Shown here in pieces: positions 1-44,764 of a stretch of DNA of 56,823 nucleotides (the first letter of the stretch is position 1; each line of letters opens with the position of its first letter). Location: contig JAHECL010000003.1 in assembly GCA_024641745.1 (NCBI GenBank), positions 1 to 56,823 on the forward strand. The letters are read 5' to 3'. The notes under the pieces were generated by a model. The model was not told where the DNA came from. It saw only the letters and a list, made by a program, of their open reading frames with translations, and did no database searches. Source of the stretch: Gemmatimonadota bacterium. GTDB taxonomy: Bacteria; Gemmatimonadota; Gemmatimonadetes; Gemmatimonadales; GWC2-71-9. Both the position numbers and the translations under genes were made by a program.

Positions 1-117
1 CATGAGCGCCACCTGCCCGGGCGGCTCCGCTGGTCGATGGACGATCCACCGGGCCCCCTGGCCGACGAGGCCCAGCAGGAGCAGCAGCAGGATGGCCCGT
101 CGTTCGGTCGGCTCCAT
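1..117 (-). CDS. N-terminus of a membrane-anchored protein, possibly ComEA-like helix-hairpin-helix protein (truncated by window edge)
   Basis: ATG at 117 gives MEPTERRAILLLLLLGLVGQGARWIVHRPAEPPGQVALM. The ERR-hydrophobic N-terminus resembles ComEA-type anchors, but the diagnostic HhH domain is outside the window. Confidence 0.4.
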   Translation of the reverse strand, partial: MEPTERRAILLLLLLGLVGQGARWIVHRPAEPPGQVALM

Positions 118-193
118 GCCGGATGATGCCGTGGGAGTGCCGTGCCTCCCTGACCGTTCCAGCGCGCGCAGGAACCGTCCAGCGCGCCCCGGC

Positions 194-1096
194 CTACCGC
201 TCGGAGTTCGCCACCAGGGCCAGGGCCACCTCGCCGACGGCCTGCAGGCTCTGGGCGCTCACCTTGTCCGGCGTGTCGTCGGGGGTATGCCAGTAGAGGT
301 AATCGAAGTCCACCACGTCGATGGCCCGGATGCCGATCGCCTGGAGGGAAATATGGTCGTCGGTGATGGTGTGCCTGGGCACGGGGATGAACAGGTTGCC
401 GTGCCCCGCCTTCTTCGCCACCGACCAGACCAGGTCCACGACCTCGGGGGCGCCGGTGAGGGAATTCCCCTCCTGGTAGATCTGCAGGTCCCTGTCGCCC
501 ACCATGTCGAAGAGCACGGCATAGAGCGGCAGGGCGCCGACAGGCAGGTGCGCGGCATAGTACTTCGACCCGATCAGGACATCGTTCTCGTCGGCGAAGA
601 CGCCGTAGTCCTCCCCGTCCACGAAGAGCAGGTCCACGCCGAAGGAGGTGGGGACCGCGCGCAGCGCGGCGGCGACCCCCAGCAGGACGGCGACGCCTGA
701 CGCGCCGTCGTTGGCGCCCGGCACCGGGGCAGCGCTGTCCCGGCTCGCCGGGCCGTCCGAGATGGGACGGGTATCCCAGTGGGCCAGGAAGAGGAGGCGC
801 TCCCCGGCCATGGGGTTGAACTTGGCCACGAAGTTGACCAGCGGCAGGGAATCCCCCGCCCCCGTCACGTGCGTCCACCGCTGGACGACGAGGGTGTCCG
901 CAAGCGGCCGGAGCAGGCTGTCGAGCCAGGCCGCCTCGGCGGCGTGGCCGGCGGTGCCGGGAATCCGCGGCCCGAAGCCCACCTGGGTCTCGACGGCACG
1001 GTAGGCGGCCGCGCCATCGAACGGCCGGGCCGGGCCGGCCGCCTCACAGGCCGCCAGCAGGGCGAGCCCCAGGTACACGGTGCGCGAACGGCGCAT
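194..1096 (-). CDS. M28-family zinc lipoprotein, probable glutaminyl-peptide cyclotransferase (glutaminyl cyclase)
   Basis: Start MRRSRTVYLGLALLAAC (lipobox) overlaps the sprA stop (ATGA). Motifs AHWDTRP, GANDGASG, DGEDYG, DMVG, ITDDH and WHT are typical of Bacteroidota/animal-type QC. Confidence 0.8.
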   Translation of the reverse strand: MRRSRTVYLGLALLAACEAAGPARPFDGAAAYRAVETQVGFGPRIPGTAGHAAEAAWLDSLLRPLADTLVVQRWTHVTGAGDSLPLVNFVAKFNPMAGERLLFLAHWDTRPISDGPASRDSAAPVPGANDGASGVAVLLGVAAALRAVPTSFGVDLLFVDGEDYGVFADENDVLIGSKYYAAHLPVGALPLYAVLFDMVGDRDLQIYQEGNSLTGAPEVVDLVWSVAKKAGHGNLFIPVPRHTITDDHISLQAIGIRAIDVVDFDYLYWHTPDDTPDKVSAQSLQAVGEVALALVANSER

Positions 1097-4000
1097 CAAT
1101 AATCTCCGGAGAAGAGGGAGAGCTGGAAGGTCAGGCTGATGGTGATCTGCTCCGTCTTCCGGTTCAGCTGACGCACGTCGTTCACGACATAGGCCCCCTG
1201 CAGGCCGCCGGTCAGGATGGTGAAGATGTCGGTGTCCACACCGGCCCGGAGCGTCTGCCGCCGCACGTCGGACACGCCCAGGCAGGTATCCTCGCCAGGC
1301 AGTTCGAGACAGGACTCGGACTGGCTGGTCAGGCCGTTGATCGACACCCGGACCTGGCGGCGCGTGCTGCGGGTGCTGCCCCCCATCCGGAAGAGGTAGA
1401 CCAGGTTGGCAGTGATGTCGGTGCCGTTTCCGAGGGAGGTGGTGCCGTTGCTCTGGCGCTGGTCGCTGGTGGTGCCGTACCCCAGGCTGAGGCTGATCCC
1501 GTTCCGGAAGGTCAGCTGGAGGTCGTTGGTCCAGGTGGATGTCTCGGTCAGGGAGACGGCCGACGTCGTCGAGGACGGGAGCGTGGTCTGGCCCGATCGC
1601 TGGCGGACGTTGGTCGACAGGCTGATGACGGTCAGCGGCCCGTTGCGCAGCGTCTGGGTCCACCGCGCCTGGACGATCGGCCATTCCGTCTGGGAGGTCT
1701 GGGACAGCAGGAAGCCGTTGCTGGCCCGGGTGTACCGGTCGGTTTCGGAGGAGGTGTACTGCAGCCCGGCGGTGATCCCGAACGGGAGGTCGACCCCGCC
1801 GCCAAGGGTCAGGCTGTTCATCTCGCCGGCGCTCAGCGACGAGTCCGTCCCCTGTACCAGGAAGTCGTCCAGGCTGCCGCGCGCGAGCATGTAGGCGAGA
1901 TCCGGCGAGAAGGTGGCCAGGTCATAGGTGGAGAACCGCTGCGTCCGGTAGACCACGTCCAGCACCCGGATCCCCTGGAGGATGCGCGCGGTCAGGCCGG
2001 AGTCGGTCATCAGCTGGCGGAACCCTCGCGAGGGGTCGAGGGTGACCCCGATCTCCCGTGATCGGTTGTTGTTGAGGGTCTGCGGCAGGATGTAGCCCCC
2101 GCTGTCCCCGAAGGCCTGCACCGGCTGGCGGCTGGTCAGGCTGCGCGACAGCACGAAATTGCTGAAGGTGTTCAGCCGGAAGCGGAGCCAGGAGGTCAGG
2201 CGCGGGTTGAGGGTAATCGCGGAGGAGACTGTCCGGTCCCGCTCGACGCCGACGTCCATCCCGAGAAAGTCCTGCCGCGAGGCGCCTACCAGGCGCCCGA
2301 TCGAGGTCGAGTCCTCGTACTCCCGAAGGTCGCGCGTGCTCGCGACGTCGCCGCTCAGGATCAGCATGCCGATCGGCTGCCAGGTGAGCCCGCCCGAGTT
2401 CCGCCAGAGCTGGCTGAGGGAGACGGCGGGGGTCAGCGCCGCGTCGCCGGGCCGGACCACGGGGACCAGGTAGCCGGTGAAGTCGCTCTGGTTCTGGCTC
2501 AGCTGGCTGGTCAGCCGGATGCTGGTCGGGGCCAGGCCGAGCTTGGTGGTGCGCGCCGCCTTCAGCCCCTCGCTGCGCGACACCCAGTCGGGCAGCTGGT
2601 CCACCGCGCCACCGAGCGAAATCTCGGGACCGAACCGCGGAAGGGCCAGCAGGTAATTCAGGGTGAAGACGCTCGACGAGGAGGTGCCGGAGGACAACTC
2701 GGTCTGGCTCTGTCCGCTCACGACCGCCCCCGAGAACGCGAGCGGATCGAGGAGCCCCTTCTCGACCCAGGTGGTGCCGCGCTTGCTCCGCCGCAGGGCG
2801 AAGTTGAACTGGGTGGACGAACTGGACGGCTGGCGCAGGTTTGCAATGTCTGAGGCGAGGATGTCGGTGCCGCCGATCAGGATCGGCGCGACGCTGGTCC
2901 GGGTGTGGCTGATCGAGAACGGGATGGCCAGCCCGAGCGAGGCCGGCAGGAACCGGTCCACCCGCCAGTTGGAGCCGATGACGAGCGCCCCCGACGTGCG
3001 GTAGGTCGGGTTGCGCCCGATCTGCTGGAAGTAGCCGTCCTGCCGGACGTAGTTGATGGCAAAGTCGGCGACATCCGAAGCCTGGAGGCGCGCGTCGATG
3101 GCCAGCGACCCGCCCGACTCGGTGAGCGGCGCGTCGAGGCGGATGTCGTCCACCCAGAGCTCGACGGTGGTCAGCGTCTCGGTATTGGCCCGGCGGTAAA
3201 TGCCGGCGGCGAGTTCCTGCGCCGCCGCCAGGTTGGGGGGATTCACCCCCGGGTCGGCCACCTGCACGACGTACGGTCCCTCGCAGGCCACGTACGCCAG
3301 CGGGTCGCCGATGCCGCACGCCGCCGCCCCGTCCGGCGGCAGCCCCTGCAGCCAGCGCTGCTCGATGTCGGCGCGGAGCTGCCGCCAGACCGGAATGCTG
3401 ATCACCGCCTCGGGGTTCCAGTCGGTGCTGCTGGCGGGGACGATGTACATGTAGAAATTGCGCTCGTCGCTGCCGACCTTGAAGTAGGCGTTGAGGTCCC
3501 CGCTGGCCCACCCGTCGCCCCGCCCCTTGAACCAGACCTGGATTTCCCCGTACTTCAGCAGGTTCTGGGGGCCGGACGGAAAGCGCTGGTAGGCCTCGGC
3601 CCGTTCGTCGACGTCGAGCGCGGTCGCGACGACACGGAGCGACTTCTCGTTGATCTGGATCCCCTGCACCGTCTGCCCGTTGTCGTTCCGCGCCGGCTCG
3701 TTGACCACGCCCGGCGGGCTGGTGTAGCCGAGGGCCACGTCCTCGGTCGAGATGACGGCGGCAAACATCGTCCCGGTCGGGCTGGCCACCGAGCCGCCGA
3801 TCCCCAGCAGGGGAGTGTCGGCGCGGCGCACCCACGGCGCCCCGGTGAAGCGCGCCCGGGCCAGGGCGAATCGCGCCACGACGTCGCTGGGATCGGGGCC
3901 GTCCGGGGCCACGATGGTGACGCGGAGGTTCTGCACCAGTCGGAGGTTCGGGGTGCCGATGGTGTACTCGGGCAGCCGCATCGGCACCCGGTAGAGGGTC

Positions 4001-7000
4001 CAGGTCGAGGTCTGCCCGTCGGTGTTGGTGGAGGTGGCACCGGTGCGGACGTAGTACTGCGACAGCTCGTTGGGGGTGACGACCCAGCGCAGCACGTTGT
4101 CGTTGGCGCCCTGGGCGTTGAGGCGGTTGTCCCCGTTCAGGTCTTCCGTGTCCAGGAAGCCGTTCCCGACGGTGCAGTGGCTGCTCAGGTCTCCCCACGG
4201 ATAGATCGGCACCGAGGAGGAGAGGATGTCGGCGCAGGTCTGCACGTCGGTCTGGATGAGCCCGTTGACGCTCATGGAGTCCACCCGGTCGAGCAGGATC
4301 CCGATGTCGTCCACCGAGGCGTTGAAGATGCCGCTGGCCTGGCGTTCGCTGTCCAGCACGTCGACCCCGGTGTAGCGCCGCCCGGTGTACAGGCTGTCCG
4401 CCCCGGTGACGGTCAGGCTGTCCGGCGCGATGGCGAGGGCGTCCTCGCTCACCGAGCCGAGGTCCACGATGAGCTGGACGCCGGCGGCGTCCGCCGTCTT
4501 GTCGCCGCCCTGGAACACCCAGAATTCCAGGTACTCCGACCGGGAGAGGTCGACCCCGCTCTGTGACAGCGGGGTGACGAGCGACCGCCAGCGCGGGGTG
4601 AAGGGCTGCGCCGGCAGGCTCCACAGGGAACTGTTGTTGGTCTGGACCATGCCGCCGGCGGTGTCGGCGTGGAAGGTGAGGTAGAGCACCGTCTCGTTCA
4701 GGCTGCCCTGCCCGTTCGTGATGATGGTCGGGTCGATGTCCTGCGGCTGCAGCTCGATCGGCGACCCACTCGGCCCGGGCACGAGGTTCTGCCAGCTGAG
4801 CTGCACCGCCCAGAGCGAGTCGAAGCCGCCCGCAAATCCCAGCGCCTCCACCCCCAGCGTGGACTGCGGCACGCTGCTGTACTCCCAGCGCGAGGTGAGC
4901 ATGCTCACCGGGATGGACGACTCTCCCTCGAAGTCCTCGAGGTAGGCCTGCCCGAGCAGGTTGGGGTCGGGGTGGGTGACGCCGTACTCCGCCCGGATGT
5001 CCAGCTGCGACGGCGCAGTCACCGACTGGGTGGTGAGCTGGTCGAAGAACCGGGTGACCCCGGACGGCCGGAAGCGAAGGTCCGTCGTGATGCCCAGGAG
5101 CAGGTTGGACGTCGGCTCGAACCCGAGCGTGGGCCGGGTGAACACCGACTGCTCCTTCTGGTACATCCCGATCAGGTTGACGGATCCCACCTCGCCGAGC
5201 GAGTAGCCGAGGGTGCCGCCGAGGATCGAGGTGGGCGCCACCGCGAAGATCCCCCGCTCCTCGAACCGGGCGTTGATCGTGCCGGTGCCGGAGGGAAAGA
5301 GCGCGGTGGGGTTGGTGAAGGTGACCTGCCCCAGGTCGTAGTTGATCTCGTAGTCGACGCCGCGCTCCAGCACCCGGCCGCCCGCGGTCAGCTGCTCGGA
5401 GCCGCGGCGGATCTGGAGGGCGTTCAGGTTGAGGCTCCCCGGGTCGTCCCCCCCGGCGGCCCGGTACTCGAGGCGCATCTGGAACCGGGACGGCGGGCCC
5501 TGCGGTGTCGTGATCAGGTAGGCCGGGGAAGTGTACACCGAGTCGGCCCGTTCATTCGGCTGCAGCCGCGGATCGACGAAGGGTCGCAGGGAGGGGTAGG
5601 CGATGTACGACTCGCGGAGCACGAGGTCGGCGCCGGGATCCCGCTGCCGGGGAAAGAGACGGTTGTCGAGGTCGAACACATTCGGGTCGGGAGGGATCGC
5701 CAGGCCGAAGAAGGCGAGGTAGGTCTGCGCGTTGTCGCTGGAGGGCCGCTCGGACTGGTTGAGCGTCACCGTCACCTTCAGGGAGCGCTTGTCGAGGTCG
5801 GTGCCGGACACCCGGTACACCTGCCGCATCTCGTGCCGGAAGGTCTGCTGGGTCGGGCCCTGCAGGGGGATGGCCACCAGCAGCAGGCTGTCGGTCACCG
5901 CCGGGTCCTCGGCGGCGGGGAAGGTGCCCACCCGGGTCCCGTTCAGGGTCACGTAGCTGACCGCGAGGTAATCGTTCTGGTCCAGCTTGGTGGCCAGGGC
6001 GAACCAGAGCCCCGACGGGTCGAGGTAATAGTCCGATCCCTGCAGGAGGAGCTGCCAGGTGCCTTCCACCCGCTCCGGCCCGTCGGGACGGAACCCGAGG
6101 GCGGTGATGCCCCCCAGGTTGGGATTCAGCCCGCTTCCCACTCCGGTCCGGTAGCGATAGACCCGGACCTGGCCGTCGGCCGGCTGGATGGCCGGCGGAA
6201 TGGCCACCTGGTCGAGGTTGAGGATGTCGACGAAGGGAAAGTTGGGCAGCGGCGCCGGATCGACCGCCCAGAAGAAGCGGCCGGACTCGAAATCGACGTC
6301 GCGGACCAGGCGGTCCTGCGGCTCACTGGTCGTGGCCCCGACGGTGTACACCCGCTGTCCGACCACGCTGCCTTCCTGGGTGGCCATCATCGCCTGGATG
6401 GTGAACGGCCCGAACTCGAGGGTCGCGTTCAGGCCGAAGTTGTTCGCGGGAATGGCGGTCGTCAGGAAGCGGGAGGGCGGCGTCCGGAACGAGACCGTTC
6501 CGACTTCCACCCGGCGCACGATCTCGTCCTGGAGCCCCTCGTAATAGACCTGGACGTCGTTGTTGGCGTTGAACTCGCGGCGGGAATCGTAGTCGATGTT
6601 CACGTGCAGCCGGCTCCCGATGAGCCCGCCGACCTTGGCGTTGAATTCGTTCTCCAGCCGCGGCGTCTTGAATCCGCCCCGGCACCCCGAGTTCTGGTCG
6701 AGCAGCTGGGCGGGGGTGCACCGGAGGTTCTTGACCCGGTCCGACCGGATGTCGAGGAAGGCCGAGCCGTCGATGTGCAGATCGGCGTATTTTGTGGGGA
6801 TGCCGAGCAGGGTCTGGCGTTCCGCCTGGTTCGCCTCGCTCAGCTGCACCTGCAGGTTATTGGCCCCATAGATGGCGGCCAGCGTCTGGGACGACTGCCA
6901 CGCCGCGCGCTCCCGGGTCAGGCGGCGGTCGAGTTGCGCCTGCCAGGCCACCCCGGCCTGCGTCGCGCTCACGGAGGGCGCCCCGAGCCAGGCGGCCCGG

Positions 7001-7143
7001 GCCGCCGCCGGTTGCCGAAGCGTCGGCAGCGGTACATTAAAGCTGGGTCGCACACCCACGCCGCCCTCCGGGACGCCCTGGGCGGACGCCACGGCAGGAA
7101 TGATTGACAGCAGGAACCCGAAGGCAAGAGCGAGACGGGCCAC
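1096..7143 (-). CDS. sprA: SprA/Sov-family T9SS outer-membrane translocon, 2015 aa
   Basis: Signal peptide. SprA-like segments VNIDYDSRREF..YEGLQDEIVRRVEVG.V.F, LERGVDYEINYDLGQV, AYLEDFEG, YLEFWV, DTEDLNGD and LWVDDIRL. Long amphipathic beta-strand C-terminal region. Confidence 0.88.
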   Translation of the reverse strand: MARLALAFGFLLSIIPAVASAQGVPEGGVGVRPSFNVPLPTLRQPAAARAAWLGAPSVSATQAGVAWQAQLDRRLTRERAAWQSSQTLAAIYGANNLQVQLSEANQAERQTLLGIPTKYADLHIDGSAFLDIRSDRVKNLRCTPAQLLDQNSGCRGGFKTPRLENEFNAKVGGLIGSRLHVNIDYDSRREFNANNDVQVYYEGLQDEIVRRVEVGTVSFRTPPSRFLTTAIPANNFGLNATLEFGPFTIQAMMATQEGSVVGQRVYTVGATTSEPQDRLVRDVDFESGRFFWAVDPAPLPNFPFVDILNLDQVAIPPAIQPADGQVRVYRYRTGVGSGLNPNLGGITALGFRPDGPERVEGTWQLLLQGSDYYLDPSGLWFALATKLDQNDYLAVSYVTLNGTRVGTFPAAEDPAVTDSLLLVAIPLQGPTQQTFRHEMRQVYRVSGTDLDKRSLKVTVTLNQSERPSSDNAQTYLAFFGLAIPPDPNVFDLDNRLFPRQRDPGADLVLRESYIAYPSLRPFVDPRLQPNERADSVYTSPAYLITTPQGPPSRFQMRLEYRAAGGDDPGSLNLNALQIRRGSEQLTAGGRVLERGVDYEINYDLGQVTFTNPTALFPSGTGTINARFEERGIFAVAPTSILGGTLGYSLGEVGSVNLIGMYQKEQSVFTRPTLGFEPTSNLLLGITTDLRFRPSGVTRFFDQLTTQSVTAPSQLDIRAEYGVTHPDPNLLGQAYLEDFEGESSIPVSMLTSRWEYSSVPQSTLGVEALGFAGGFDSLWAVQLSWQNLVPGPSGSPIELQPQDIDPTIITNGQGSLNETVLYLTFHADTAGGMVQTNNSSLWSLPAQPFTPRWRSLVTPLSQSGVDLSRSEYLEFWVFQGGDKTADAAGVQLIVDLGSVSEDALAIAPDSLTVTGADSLYTGRRYTGVDVLDSERQASGIFNASVDDIGILLDRVDSMSVNGLIQTDVQTCADILSSSVPIYPWGDLSSHCTVGNGFLDTEDLNGDNRLNAQGANDNVLRWVVTPNELSQYYVRTGATSTNTDGQTSTWTLYRVPMRLPEYTIGTPNLRLVQNLRVTIVAPDGPDPSDVVARFALARARFTGAPWVRRADTPLLGIGGSVASPTGTMFAAVISTEDVALGYTSPPGVVNEPARNDNGQTVQGIQINEKSLRVVATALDVDERAEAYQRFPSGPQNLLKYGEIQVWFKGRGDGWASGDLNAYFKVGSDERNFYMYIVPASSTDWNPEAVISIPVWRQLRADIEQRWLQGLPPDGAAACGIGDPLAYVACEGPYVVQVADPGVNPPNLAAAQELAAGIYRRANTETLTTVELWVDDIRLDAPLTESGGSLAIDARLQASDVADFAINYVRQDGYFQQIGRNPTYRTSGALVIGSNWRVDRFLPASLGLAIPFSISHTRTSVAPILIGGTDILASDIANLRQPSSSSTQFNFALRRSKRGTTWVEKGLLDPLAFSGAVVSGQSQTELSSGTSSSSVFTLNYLLALPRFGPEISLGGAVDQLPDWVSRSEGLKAARTTKLGLAPTSIRLTSQLSQNQSDFTGYLVPVVRPGDAALTPAVSLSQLWRNSGGLTWQPIGMLILSGDVASTRDLREYEDSTSIGRLVGASRQDFLGMDVGVERDRTVSSAITLNPRLTSWLRFRLNTFSNFVLSRSLTSRQPVQAFGDSGGYILPQTLNNNRSREIGVTLDPSRGFRQLMTDSGLTARILQGIRVLDVVYRTQRFSTYDLATFSPDLAYMLARGSLDDFLVQGTDSSLSAGEMNSLTLGGGVDLPFGITAGLQYTSSETDRYTRASNGFLLSQTSQTEWPIVQARWTQTLRNGPLTVISLSTNVRQRSGQTTLPSSTTSAVSLTETSTWTNDLQLTFRNGISLSLGYGTTSDQRQSNGTTSLGNGTDITANLVYLFRMGGSTRSTRRQVRVSINGLTSQSESCLELPGEDTCLGVSDVRRQTLRAGVDTDIFTILTGGLQGAYVVNDVRQLNRKTEQITISLTFQLSLFSGDY

Positions 7144-7187
7144 GCGTGTCCGGGAAGAGAGAGGCGAGAGTGGAGAGGGACCACCGC

Positions 7188-7216
7188 AATATAGCGCCCG
7201 AAAAAATCCGGTTCAA
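7188..7216 (-). promoter_or_regulatory. sigma70-type promoter for sprA
   Basis: Minus strand TTGAAC-17bp-TATATT, 45 bp upstream of the sprA GTG. Confidence 0.6.
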
Positions 7217-7231
7217 CCACCGGGACGCCCT

Positions 7232-8815
7232 GTGCGCCTGCTGAGCCGATACGTCCTCACGCAGCTGGCCGCCCCGTTCGTCTTCGCGATGGCGGCCCTG
7301 ACGAGCATCATGCTCCTCAACCAGATCGCGCAGCGGTTCGGCGACCTGGTGGGCAAGGGGCTCGAGTGGAGCCTGATCGGGGAGGTCTTCCTCCTCAGCC
7401 TGCCCTTCATCGTGGCGATGACGCTGCCGATGGCCGTCCTGCTGGCCGTGCTCTACGCCTTCACCACGCTCGCCTCCAGCAACGAAATCACCGCGATGCG
7501 GGCCAGCGGCATCTCCATCGGGCGGCTGCTCCGCCCGGTCTTCCTGGCGGCGATGCTCCTGACCGTCGTGGACTTCCTCTTCGTGGACCAGGGGCTCCCC
7601 GCCGCCAACCTCCGGCTCAAGGCCCTCATCTTCGACATCGGCCGCAAGCGGCCGACGCTCAACCTGCGCGAGCAGGCGCTGAACGAAGTCCCGCCGTCGA
7701 ACCTCTTCCTCCGGGCGGGACGCATCGACCCTGCCGACGGCCGGCTCCGCGACGTCACCCTCTACGACATGTCGGGCACGCAGGGCCGGCAGGTCATCTA
7801 TGCCGACAGCGGGCAGATGGGCTTCGAACCCAACCTGAAGGACCTCTACCTGACGCTGCACAGCGGGTCCATCCTGCAGTTCAAGTCGTCGGACGCCGGA
7901 CTCATGCAGCTGACGTACTTCACGGTCAACACCATCCGCGTCCGGAACGTGGGCAGCACCCTCGAGCGCTCCTTCGACGACACCCCCAAGGGCGACCGGG
8001 AAATGACCACCTGCGAGATGCTCGTGGCGGCGTCGGACACGACCGCCGCCCTCGAGCAGATGGAGCGGCGGCGCGCCGGCCTGCTCGAGGACGACCTGCG
8101 CAGCCTCCTCGCCCTGCCCCGCGCCCCCCGCCCTGACACCACCCGCGCGTCGGTGATCCCGTGGTGTGCCCGGCTGCGCGGCGTCGGGGACCGGCTGCTC
8201 CCGGAGACGGCCGAGGCGCAACCGCAGGCACAGGACACCAGCCGGCTGGGACGGCTGAAGCGGCAGCGGCAGGAGCGGCGCCAGGCGGCGCCCCCGCGCG
8301 CGGCCGATGGACGCACGAGCCCCGGCGCGGCCGTGCCCCGACCGGTCCCGACCGGGGGACCGGAGGACGACGACCGGGTGCGCCGGGTGTCCCTCAGCTC
8401 GTGGGTGGACGTGGCCAACAGCGCCGAGGACATCAAGGGGGCGCGCCATGTCGCCAACGTCTTCCTGGTCGAGGTCCACAAGAAGTACGCGATCACCGTG
8501 GCCTGCCTCGTGTTCGTGCTGGTGGGCATTCCCCTCGCCCTCCGCTTTCCGCGGGGCGGCATGGGCCTGGTGCTCGGCGGAGGCCTCGGGATCTTCGCGT
8601 TGTACTACATCAGCCTCACCGCGGGGGAGCCGCTGGCCGATGCCGGCATCCTCCCCCCTGCGGTGGTGATGTGGGCGCCCAACGTGGTCTTCACCGTGGT
8701 GGGGGTGGTGGGCCTCCTCCGGGTCAACCGCGAGCTGGGCTCGACCCGCGGCGGTGACATTGCGGAACTGGCCGACCTCCTGCGGCGCCGCCTGGCGCGC
8801 TGGCGGGCCCGCTGA
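7232..8815 (+). CDS. lptF: LPS export ABC permease LptF (with long periplasmic insertion)
   Basis: GTG start VRLLSRYVL. Motifs LPMAVLLA, NEITAMRASGIS and EVHKKYA..LVGIPLA. 3+3 TM layout, paired with lptG. Confidence 0.88.
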   Translation: MRLLSRYVLTQLAAPFVFAMAALTSIMLLNQIAQRFGDLVGKGLEWSLIGEVFLLSLPFIVAMTLPMAVLLAVLYAFTTLASSNEITAMRASGISIGRLLRPVFLAAMLLTVVDFLFVDQGLPAANLRLKALIFDIGRKRPTLNLREQALNEVPPSNLFLRAGRIDPADGRLRDVTLYDMSGTQGRQVIYADSGQMGFEPNLKDLYLTLHSGSILQFKSSDAGLMQLTYFTVNTIRVRNVGSTLERSFDDTPKGDREMTTCEMLVAASDTTAALEQMERRRAGLLEDDLRSLLALPRAPRPDTTRASVIPWCARLRGVGDRLLPETAEAQPQAQDTSRLGRLKRQRQERRQAAPPRAADGRTSPGAAVPRPVPTGGPEDDDRVRRVSLSSWVDVANSAEDIKGARHVANVFLVEVHKKYAITVACLVFVLVGIPLALRFPRGGMGLVLGGGLGIFALYYISLTAGEPLADAGILPPAVVMWAPNVVFTVVGVVGLLRVNRELGSTRGGDIAELADLLRRRLARWRAR

Positions 8816-40979: not shown

Positions 40980-41691
40980 GGACCAGCTCGGCGTAGCGGC
41001 CGTGGAAGGCGGCCAGGTCGTCGGGCCGCCGGCCCTCGAGCGCCCAGTGGCCGCCGGCGAGCACCGCCACATGCGTGGCGAGCTCCCACGCCTCGGCCAG
41101 GTGGTGGCTCACCAGGACCAGCGCCCGGCCCCGGTCCAGCTGGGACGAGAGCAGCGCGCGAAACCGGTCCGCCGCCGGGGCATCGAGGCCGGTGAAGGGC
41201 TCGTCGAGCAGGAGGATATCGGGCTGGTGCAGCAGGGCGCGCGCGATGGCGGCACGCTGCAGCAGGCCGCGGCTGAGGTGCCGGACGGGGGTGTCCGCGC
41301 GTGCGCTCAGCCCGACCTCCTCGAGCGCCGCCCGGGTCGCCGCCTCCGGATCCGGCAGGTGGTAGAGCCGGGCGGTGAAGCGCAGGTTCTCGCTCGGCGT
41401 GAGGTCGTCGTACAGGAAGGTATGGTGCGACAGCAGGCCGATCGCCCGGCGGGGCGCCGGATCATGGCGGGTCAGCTGCTCGCCGCGGATTCGCACCTGG
41501 CCCCGGCTGGGCCGCATCAGGCCCGCCAGGATCCGGAGGAGCGTCGTCTTGCCGGCGCCGTTCGGTCCGGCGACCGCCAGCATCTCGCCGGCACGGACGT
41601 CGAGATCGATACCACGGAGGACCTGGAGCGCGCCGAACGCGCGGACCAGCCCGCGCGCCGACAGGAGGGGTGTCTCAGCCGGCTCGGTCAA
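40972..41691 (-). CDS. ccmA: Heme ABC exporter ATP-binding protein CcmA (start TTG 41691 or 41718)
   Basis: GPNGAGKTT, LY.DLT..ENL.F, LSRGLLQR, LLLDEPFTGLD. Confidence 0.9.
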   Translation of the reverse strand: MTEPAETPLLSARGLVRAFGALQVLRGIDLDVRAGEMLAVAGPNGAGKTTLLRILAGLMRPSRGQVRIRGEQLTRHDPAPRRAIGLLSHHTFLYDDLTPSENLRFTARLYHLPDPEAATRAALEEVGLSARADTPVRHLSRGLLQRAAIARALLHQPDILLLDEPFTGLDAPAADRFRALLSSQLDRGRALVLVSHHLAEAWELATHVAVLAGGHWALEGRRPDDLAAFHGRYAELVHG

Positions 41692-42043
41692 TGGCGGCGC
41701 CGAGCTCGTCGAGGTCAAACGGCTTGATCAGGTAGGCATCGTGCGCCAGGTCGAGCACCCGAAGCTGCGGCTCGACGCTGACGTAGGCGGTGGTGATGAT
41801 GACCGGGAGGTCGGGCGACACGTCGCGGATGCGGCGGAGCAGGTCCACACCGTCCGTGTCGGGCAGGCGCATGTCCAGCACCACGACATCGGGCGGCGCC
41901 TCCGCCAGCCGCGTGAGCGCCTCCGCGCCCGAGGACGCGAACGTCATCGTATAGCGCGGGCGGAAGTACCGCTCGTAGCTGATGCGGAGGGCGGGCTCGT
42001 CTTCGATGAAGAGCACCCGCCGGTTGGCTGCCTGTTCGGTCAT
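41675..42043 (-). CDS. Single-domain response regulator (receiver only)
   Basis: VLFIEDE, DVVVLDMRLPDTDG, IITTAY, YLIKPF. Confidence 0.92.
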   Translation of the reverse strand: MTEQAANRRVLFIEDEPALRISYERYFRPRYTMTFASSGAEALTRLAEAPPDVVVLDMRLPDTDGVDLLRRIRDVSPDLPVIITTAYVSVEPQLRVLDLAHDAYLIKPFDLDELGAAIDRAG

Positions 42044-42103
42044 TACCCCGTCCGGAAGGGCCGGCGTCGCCGCCAGGGTGGCGGCGGACCCCGGAGTATA
42101 AGA

Positions 42104-42418
42104 CTAGGCCTGCTTCGGTTCCAGTTCGAAGAGGTCGTCCAGCTTCGTGAGCATCAGGAGGAAACGGAGTTCCTCGCTCGCGGAGCGCAGCGCGACGCGC
42201 TGCCGCCGCTCGCCGGCCCGGCGCTGGACCAGCATCAGGGCCCCCAGGCCGGCGGAGTCCACGTGGCGGGTGTCGCTCAGGTCGATGACCAGGCGGCTCT
42301 CGCCCTCGGGCATCGCTTCGAGCACGCCCACCGCCTCCTGGCGGAACGAAGCGCGGGTGTCGAGGCCCAGTGACGCGGGCGCGTGCAGCTGACGGACAGT
42401 CGGGACGTTGGGTACCAT
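42104..42418 (-). CDS. STAS-domain anti-sigma-factor antagonist
   Basis: RBS GGAG. LVIDLS....VDSAGLGAL carries the phosphorylatable Ser. L.LTKLDDLF. Confidence 0.9.
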   Translation of the reverse strand: MVPNVPTVRQLHAPASLGLDTRASFRQEAVGVLEAMPEGESRLVIDLSDTRHVDSAGLGALMLVQRRAGERRQRVALRSASEELRFLLMLTKLDDLFELEPKQA

Positions 42419-42439
42419 GCTGGCATCTCCCTGGCCCTG

Positions 42440-42492
42440 AACAAGCAAAGCGTGGTCGTTTCGCCACGCCAGCCGGCCGAAACGCCACGCTC
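42440..42492 (-). terminator. Intrinsic terminator-like hairpin in the riboswitch expression platform
   Basis: Minus strand AGCGTGG-CGTTTCG...CGAAACG-a-CCACGCT followed by TTGCTTGTT, about 20 nt before the STAS start. Confidence 0.65.
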
Positions 42493-42507
42493 ATTCGAGT
42501 CGTGTGC

Positions 42508-42604
42508 ATCCCACCTTCGGCACCGAGCTATCTCATCCCGCTTCGGATGAGACCTCCAGTTTTGCGGCCCCGGATCGCTCCGGGTGTGCTATTATCGGGC
42601 GGAT
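42508..42604 (-). ncRNA. GEMM-I (c-di-GMP-I family) riboswitch aptamer, A20 variant (candidate 3',3'-cGAMP sensor)
   Basis: Minus strand CGAUAAUA-GCACAC-CCGGA(GCGA)UCCGG-GGCCGCAAAAC-UGGAGG-UCUCAUCC..GGAUGAGA-UAG-CUCGGU-GCCGAA. It shows a GNRA-capped P2, the CGCAAA junction, P3 with the UAG bulge, and a GCCG 3' end. Confidence 0.85.
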
Positions 42605-42651
42605 CAGTTGTATTGTTCCGGAAGGCATCATGCCTCCCGCCGCTGGTAAAG

Positions 42652-42666
42652 GCGAATTTGGTGCCA
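42652..42666 (-). promoter_or_regulatory. sigma54-type -24/-12 promoter
   Basis: Minus strand TGGCAC-CAAAT-TCGC (GG-N10-GC), about 50 bp upstream of the aptamer. Confidence 0.6.
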
Positions 42667-42811
42667 TCGCCCTAACTCGCTCGTGAACATGCGGTTGCGA
42701 CCGGACTGCAAGCCTTGTCAGCCCCGTCGCCTCCCGCACTCCGCCATCCCGCGGCCTCCCTGCAAGAGCCGCCGACCGGTGTGAACCCGACTCGACCGGA
42801 GGAGCACTCCC

Positions 42812-44764
<1,953 letters not shown>

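Follow-up and report, generated by a model that had tools for sequence, protein, structure and literature searches.

An A20 GEMM-I riboswitch leader before a STAS and heme exporter operon in Gemmatimonadales, with two enzyme variants in the same genomes

The closest described systems are the GEMM-Ib riboswitches of Geobacter, such as those of Gs1761/pgcA and Gmet_0970, in which position 20 (numbering of the Vibrio Vc2 aptamer) is A while C92 is retained, and which precede genes connected with c-type cytochromes. According to PMC6456294, changing A20 to G in Gmet_0970 switches its selectivity, and the Geobacter GEMM-Ib examples act through terminators. Natural A20 GEMM-I aptamers also occur outside Geobacter. 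PMC6140456, from whose description alone Cbe 1-2 is compared here, reports that A20 aptamers also bind c-di-GMP by way of a protonated adenine and that Cbe 1-2 of Clostridium beijerinckii is bispecific. On the enzyme side, GacA (GSU1658/Gmet_1914) has Ser348 where PleD has Asp344, and at the cross-dimer position, which is Arg in canonical cyclases, it has Tyr304 (PMC6456294). Replacement of Rxx(K/R) by Rxx(Q/N) has been given as the signature of cGAMP phosphodiesterases, and Geobacter metallireducens has an A20 riboswitch alongside an HD-GYP protein with RxxQ (bioRxiv 10.1101/600031).

The leader element described here is a new instance of this established riboswitch class, whose A20 variants have long been known. 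It lies in the window, by which we mean the whole 56,823-nt stretch of DNA that was analysed, and belongs to a genome of 2.67 Mb in 228 contigs that is 94% complete. It shares A20 and C92 with the Geobacter GEMM-Ib aptamers, and here too the genes downstream are tied to c-type cytochromes, namely to their maturation. It shares with G. metallireducens the presence of an RxxQ HD-GYP protein in the same genome. It differs from the Geobacter cases in phylum (Gemmatimonadota as against Desulfobacterota), in the lack of a Ser/Thr Hypr GGDEF among the domains read from its genus, and in an expression platform that appears to be translational. By way of a STAS protein, the locus connects a cyclic dinucleotide with the ccmABC heme exporter, which the literature searched does not describe, and its conservation extends over an order whose members are mostly uncultured bacteria of soil and sediment. 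The surrounding enzyme variants, more than the riboswitch, merit experiment. The features of the locus are collected in Table 1.

Table 1. Features of the riboswitch leader and of the operon that follows it, in window positions
Feature	Position	Strand	Basis or detail
Sigma-54-type -24/-12 element	42652..42666	-	TGGCAC 42666-42661, 5-nt spacer, TCGC 42655-42652
5' leader hairpin GGGAGGCA-UGA-UGCCUUCC	42620..42638	-	Folding; between promoter and aptamer
GEMM-I aptamer	42516..42600	-	Covariance match, folding, alignment of relatives
P1 extension beyond the Rfam match	5' strand 42603-42598, 3' strand 42515-42510	-	Folding
Hairpin H1 (the 'antiterminator' of the earlier note)	42476..42515, core 42509-42482	-	Folding; core GCACACGACUC-GAAU-GAGCGUGGC
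Terminator-like hairpin GGCGUGGCG/CGACCACGCU and U-rich tract UUUGCUUGUU	42439..42470, hairpin 42470-42449	-	Terminator scan
Pre-SD segment and Shine-Dalgarno sequence	42427..42447: segment 42447-42434, GGGAG 42431-42427	-	Complementarity to aptamer positions 1-14
STAS-domain protein, 104 aa	42104..42418	-	Pfam STAS_2, 5.8e-12
Receiver-only response regulator	41675..42043	-	Pfam Response_reg, 3.1e-24
ccmA	41718-40972, start uncertain	-	Pfam; NCBIfam 157.8 bits, above the cut-off of 131.6
ccmB	to 40299	-	Pfam; NCBIfam model matched below its cut-off
ccmC	40335-39601	-	Pfam; NCBIfam model matched below its cut-off

The aptamer, its relatives and its promoter

When the window was searched with the Rfam covariance models, the only match above threshold was to RF01051 (c-di-GMP-I) on the minus strand; at 46.8 bits it exceeded the gathering score of 35, and it covered the complete model (positions 1-87). 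An earlier note, made from the letters of the window, had described a GEMM-I fold on this strand with A at the position equivalent to G20 of Vc2, and on both points it was right. The aptamer has the same P1, P2 and P3 fold as Vc2 and RF01051, with A47 (42563), which intercalates, and C92 (42520), the Watson-Crick partner, both in place. Window position 42590, which aligns with the top posterior probability to model position 11, the equivalent of Vc2 G20, is A. Thus the GEMM-I pocket set G20/A47/C92 is departed from at position 20 only, which is the known A20 sub-type and still within RF01051. Alignment with RNAalifold of 18 A20 sub-type aptamers from the order gave 19 pairs, six of them with compensatory changes, which back P2 and P3, and position 20 is A in all 18. 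We thus regard both the identity of the aptamer and the A20 call as solid. Other differences from Vc2 and RF01051 are the P2 cap, GYGA here and GAAA there, and the stretch that reads GCAAAC with GACGCAAAGC in the RF01051 consensus and GCACAC with GGCCGCAAAAC here. The surroundings of A20 may, as the earlier note has it, resemble a CGACAAUA context in Geobacter aptamers; the one Geobacteraceae MAG that was scanned had four GEMM-I matches, all of them atypical. RF03167 (c-di-GMP-I-GGC), whose E-value was the most favourable of its clan when the scan was local and permissive, was rejected as the family of this element because its score of 44.8 bits is below the cut-off of 59 and because G20 and G47 of that family are both A here.

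The genome of the window has a second A20 GEMM-I aptamer, of the kind that the earlier note had thought worth looking for. It is on contig C142 at 6523-6608 (L001 1501-1586, plus strand), scores 59 bits and precedes a 143-aa HExxH ORF without a Pfam match, after which comes rho. Its leader has the same design as that in the window, with CUUAUCGGGCG directly before GUGGAGA and a GG-N10-GC-like GGCCCCGGACTTGC upstream. Each of the other 16 genomes of the genus has GEMM-I aptamers, 15 of them in two copies, and every one of the 27 aptamers read in the genus (of 31 matches) has A20. Outside the genus, 62 of the 66 matches were read, of which 29 have G20 and 33 have A20. The G20 aptamers often precede pilin-like or large secreted proteins. 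One class of A20 aptamers precedes a STAS gene or an HExxH ORF. A separate A20 class, marked by a G at position 48 (CGCAGAG) and by the ending GCCGCCAG, is found mostly ahead of large ORFs of secreted or lipoprotein-like character that start with MPFTFKLS or similar (in relatives, at L017, L018, L022, L149-L151, L153, L155, L158, L160, L162, L163, L165 and L176); its pocket letters match neither the GGC nor the UAU variant of Rfam. The tallies by genome cover 61 genomes, of which G030 (locus L031) is unpublished.

A GG-N10-GC promoter before the aptamer had also been proposed, and this call has held up. The element TGGCAC-N5-TCGC fits GG-N10-GC, the consensus context being TGGCAC-N5-TTGC; it is invariant in 17 of 17 loci of the genus while the flanking bases drift, and it recurs with equal spacing in eight of nine other genera. 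The genome encodes rpoN and eight Sigma54_activat genes. The strict motif TGGCAC-N5-T[TC]GC is not enriched genome-wide (9 matches, against 7-19 at other spacings), so it is the position and the conservation of the element that argue for a promoter. A sigma-70 promoter scan of 42000-42900 found none. Between the promoter element and the aptamer there is a hairpin, and in other genera hairpins of differing sequence were seen by eye at the same place. Since a variable hairpin always lies between the two, this arrangement fits a transcription start near 42640, which is where we would place it; one RNA-library contig reaches 42746, which is upstream of that start. When the regions upstream of both riboswitch promoters were compared by eye, no shared activator site was evident. 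An imperfect inverted repeat, GCTGA-N-AAGGC(C)TTGCAGT, lies farther upstream, some 45 nt before the -24 element (window 42705-42722, minus strand). It is conserved in 17 of 17 loci of the genus but was not noticed elsewhere, and it may serve as a site for an activator or belong to the divergent acs promoter.

The expression platform

The earlier note had proposed a transcriptional ON switch in which hairpin H1 serves as the antiterminator of the next terminator. Parts of this proposal stand. H1 is real and conserved, with energies of -11.9 kcal/mol for the core and -19.3 kcal/mol for an extended form, and across 17 loci of the genus its stem is kept while its loop varies. A hairpin followed by a U-rich tract does come after the aptamer, as was found by the terminator scan. 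RNA-library contigs from two studies end at 42448 and 42449 whereas others read through; these contigs derive from relatives, each listed RNA run having contained at most 8% of the sampled words, and their ends are a weak hint that the terminator hairpin works. It is the pairing of H1 against this terminator that fails. The sequence GCGUGGCG is duplicated, and the 3' arm of H1 is the first copy whereas the scanned terminator uses the second. In ViennaRNA the 42470-42449 hairpin forms both when P1 is enforced and when P1 is forbidden, so it is not exclusive with a ligand-dependent structure.

What H1 does compete with is a longer alternative to the terminator-like stem, built on the first copy with the use of 42492-42478, which has an energy of -27.8 kcal/mol as against -11.6 kcal/mol for the short form. 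H1 and this long stem are mutually exclusive, which speaks for the proposal, and H1 competes with that stem only. The direction of control, however, would be the opposite of that proposed. Extended H1 also pairs the 3' strand of P1 with GCGUUUCGGC and therefore excludes P1, and the long stem has a P of 0.61 when the 3' strand of P1 is held in the aptamer and of 0.38 otherwise. As the bound state would free GUUUCGG, which if anything favours the long stem, the ligand would raise termination and turn the operon OFF. Moreover, the H1 and terminator platform is specific to the genus, whereas another helix, described below, is common to several genera and to both paralogues. We therefore consider a transcriptional ON switch through H1 improbable.

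The other helix is formed by aptamer positions 1-14, GCCCGAUAAUAGCA, which comprise the inner strand of P1, J1/2 including A20, and the start of P2, with the segment that precedes the Shine-Dalgarno sequence. In 26 of 29 loci of the genus, both paralogues included, 12-14 of the 14 possible pairs form in an ungapped alignment, and L169, from another genus, has a perfect 14-nt complement. The complement always stops 1-5 nt ahead of GGGAG or GGAG. Aptamer position 7 covaries with its partner (C-G, U-A or U-G), and a neighbouring UCC or CUC is able to reach the GGG or GAG of the Shine-Dalgarno sequence. Duplex energies compared with mononucleotide shuffles gave z values from +1.7 to -5.4, which is a modest excess only. 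The window itself has 9 of 14 pairs, the minimum of the genus barring two loci with a 1-nt deletion. Its pre-SD segment, UGCUUGUUCAGGGC, is three positions off the majority form of the genus, UGCUUAUGUCGGGC, and it is these departures that weaken the helix to 9 pairs; the differences may be true variation or an assembly error. This helix is better conserved than the pairing put forward in the earlier note, and its conservation suggests translational ON control. A point against this reading is that the helix ends just before the Shine-Dalgarno sequence; its presumed effect would be to block the ribosome.

The account of the whole locus that we favour, and which we hold to be fairly probable, is that of a sigma-54 leader with an A20 GEMM-I aptamer that acts as a translational ON switch for the STAS/REC/ccmABC operon. 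The sigma-54 promoter would start the transcript near 42640, for which one of the activator ATPases of the genome would be needed. When the ligand is absent, both halves of P1 would be tied up in other helices: the 5' strand together with J1/2, that is, aptamer positions 1-14, would pair with the segment preceding the Shine-Dalgarno sequence, and the 3' strand would sit inside extended H1. When the ligand is bound, the aptamer would close and the pre-SD and Shine-Dalgarno region would be freed, so that translation of the STAS gene would be turned ON. C92 would call for a ligand with a guanine, and A20 would admit an adenine; the aptamer is therefore predicted to recognise 3',3'-cGAMP and, as other A20 aptamers do, probably c-di-GMP too. 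The hairpin and U tract at 42470-42439 may halt some transcripts, though not as the competitor of the aptamer.

The STAS gene and the heme exporter

The genes ccmABC code for the heme exporter of cytochrome c maturation. The order riboswitch-STAS-ccmA is kept in 16 of 16 loci of the genus and in eight of nine other genera, the ninth locus ending too early, while the receiver gene is absent in three genera. Thus the conserved positional partner of the STAS gene is the heme exporter gene ccmA. The earlier note had the riboswitch gate an anti-anti-sigma gene. A STAS gene does lie downstream, and its product has a nearly invariant phosphorylatable Ser, Ser55 in VDSAGLG, but the name given to it does not follow as readily. 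With the NCBIfam models the protein scored 32.8 bits for TIGR00377 (SpoIIAA/RsbV anti-sigma antagonist), whose cut-off is 53.45, and 28.3 bits for MlaB, whose cut-off is 90. Pairs of an RsbW-like kinase and a PP2C phosphatase are encoded on other contigs and none within the operon, where the neighbour is ccmA. An anti-anti-sigma role for the STAS protein is therefore possible. A complex prediction for STAS with CcmA gave a score of 0.01, which is below the mark and speaks neither for nor against a contact between the two.

Candidate ligands and enzymes

For an A20 riboswitch, c-di-GMP and cGAMP cannot be told apart by sequence alone, and since a protonated adenine lets A20 RNAs bind c-di-GMP as well (PMC6140456), A20 by itself does not decide the ligand. 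That the riboswitch here reads c-di-GMP, or both dinucleotides, is to our judgement close to an even call; selectivity for cGAMP is a real but lesser prospect, and the remainder falls to another ligand or to none. In the first case A20 would only tune affinity or pH dependence, as in the A20 aptamers from outside Geobacter. The genome of the window has the enzymes that this requires, with three canonical Asp/Arg cyclases having GGDEF or GGEEF and, among its four HD-GYP domains, two with Rxx(R). Furthermore, the genus is without a G20 aptamer, so that it would have no c-di-GMP riboswitches other than its A20 pair. On the other hand, there are relatives in which one genome carries aptamers of both kinds, G20 and A20, ahead of different genes. 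Such separate regulons suggest distinct signals or thresholds and agree better with an A20 aptamer that is selective for cGAMP. A c-di-GMP or dual ligand would also leave unexplained two enzymes of the genome, an HD-GYP protein with RxxQ and an Asn-type GGDEF protein.

A riboswitch selective for cGAMP, with the pocket A20/A47/C92 and comparable to GEMM-Ib, would need a cGAMP synthase. The classical route, for which the earlier note had suggested a search, could not be found. Ser or Thr at the position of PleD Asp344 and GacA Ser348, which marks the Hypr GGDEFs, is in none of the seven GGDEF domains of the window's genome and in none of the 30 that were read, of 34 matches, in four genomes of the genus that are 95-98% complete. 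A SMODS cyclase was not found in the window's genome either, so neither of the synthases expected with GEMM-Ib, a Ser/Thr Hypr GGDEF or a DncV-like enzyme, was seen in it.

One of the seven GGDEF domains, however, has Asn at this position while its GGDEF and RxxD motifs are intact. The protein also has two 4Fe-4S domains, one Fe_hyd_lg_C domain and one FeS domain. Genes of this type occur in 29 of 36 genomes of the family; every one of the 22 Asn-type domains has an aromatic residue, Tyr or Phe, at the cross-dimer position, and in 16 of 21 loci the cyclase gene lies directly behind a sigma-54 activator gene. The cross-dimer comparison follows the rule of PMC6456294, and the Asn/aromatic variant would favour the use of cGAMP by the lineage. 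The variant is like GacA in having GGDEF rather than GGEEF, a non-Asp residue at the Watson-Crick face, an aromatic cross-dimer residue and an I-site with RxxD. It is unlike GacA in that the residue is Asn and not Ser or Thr, and in that the N-terminal sensor is Fe-S/hydrogenase-like and not a receiver domain. Judged as a Hypr enzyme, the cyclase on contig C135 has the GGDEF motif and a non-Arg cross-dimer residue (Phe/Tyr), and it has Asn in place of Ser or Thr. The Asn-type GGDEF is thus outside the Hypr class, though it may work similarly. It did not appear in the literature searched, though residue-frequency tables (PMC6456294 supplements, Hallberg 2016) may mention Asn, and no GGDEF of the Asn type is known to be active.

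On contig C135 of this genome, at about 966-7001 on the minus strand (L054 being 1990-5460 and L203 being 1-3119), there is an apparent four-gene operon. It comprises an NtrC-type sigma-54 activator, the Asn/Phe Fe-S/hydrogenase-like GGDEF protein, an ORF of about 258 aa without a Pfam match, and a MASE9-HD-GYP protein with RPYR.

An enzyme that could remove cGAMP was also found. Two of the four HD-GYP domains of the genome have RxxQ. One of these is a REC-HD-GYP protein with RPYQ on contig C221 at 7129-8199 (L202 1000-2070, plus strand), and the position of the motif was checked by its alignment to RPYK of PmGH. The C221 protein therefore has the motif that is expected of a cGAMP-specific HD-GYP (GAP) phosphodiesterase by the signature in bioRxiv 10.1101/600031. 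The string PYQEKM is in the window's genome, in every one of the other 16 of the genus and in 25 of 36 other genomes of family f1, whereas the sister families f2 and f3 have it in 0 of 24 genomes.

The distribution of these genes among the relatives, whose co-occurrence counts are of non-independent samples, is less favourable to cGAMP. G037, which is 100% complete, keeps one A20 aptamer before a STAS gene, yet its eight GGDEF matches are Asp-type or degenerate and it has no RPYQ; this genome argues for c-di-GMP or a dual ligand. G009 (96% complete) has both aptamers without the Asn-type gene. Conversely, the Asn-type gene is also present in genomes that have G20 aptamers only or none (G017, G025 and G029). 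What remains is that single genomes combine G20 and A20 aptamers before different genes with two enzyme variants altered at exactly those residues by which known cGAMP enzymes choose between guanine and adenine. From this we propose, tentatively and with more doubt than confidence, that one Gemmatimonadales family may have a second cyclic-dinucleotide pathway, for 3',3'-cGAMP or another A-containing dinucleotide, whose components would be so far undescribed. The Asn/aromatic Fe-S GGDEF protein, presumably redox-sensing and encoded beside a sigma-54 activator, would be the writer, the RxxQ HD-GYP protein the eraser, and the A20 riboswitches behind sigma-54 promoters, which would gate heme export through STAS, the readers. 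Should the Asn/aromatic GGDEF make cGAMP, this would add a third way of producing the messenger and carry the pathway into a further phylum. Otherwise the locus would offer a clean example from nature of c-di-GMP being served by an A20 aptamer.

Hypr-type GGDEFs with Ser or Thr and with non-Arg cross-dimer residues were seen in MAGs labelled Acidobacteriota/Pyrinomonadaceae, Nitrospirales, Bdellovibrionales and Polyangia (L085, L091, L093, L101-L103, L112, L115, L117, L122, L124, L131-L133 and L135-L137).
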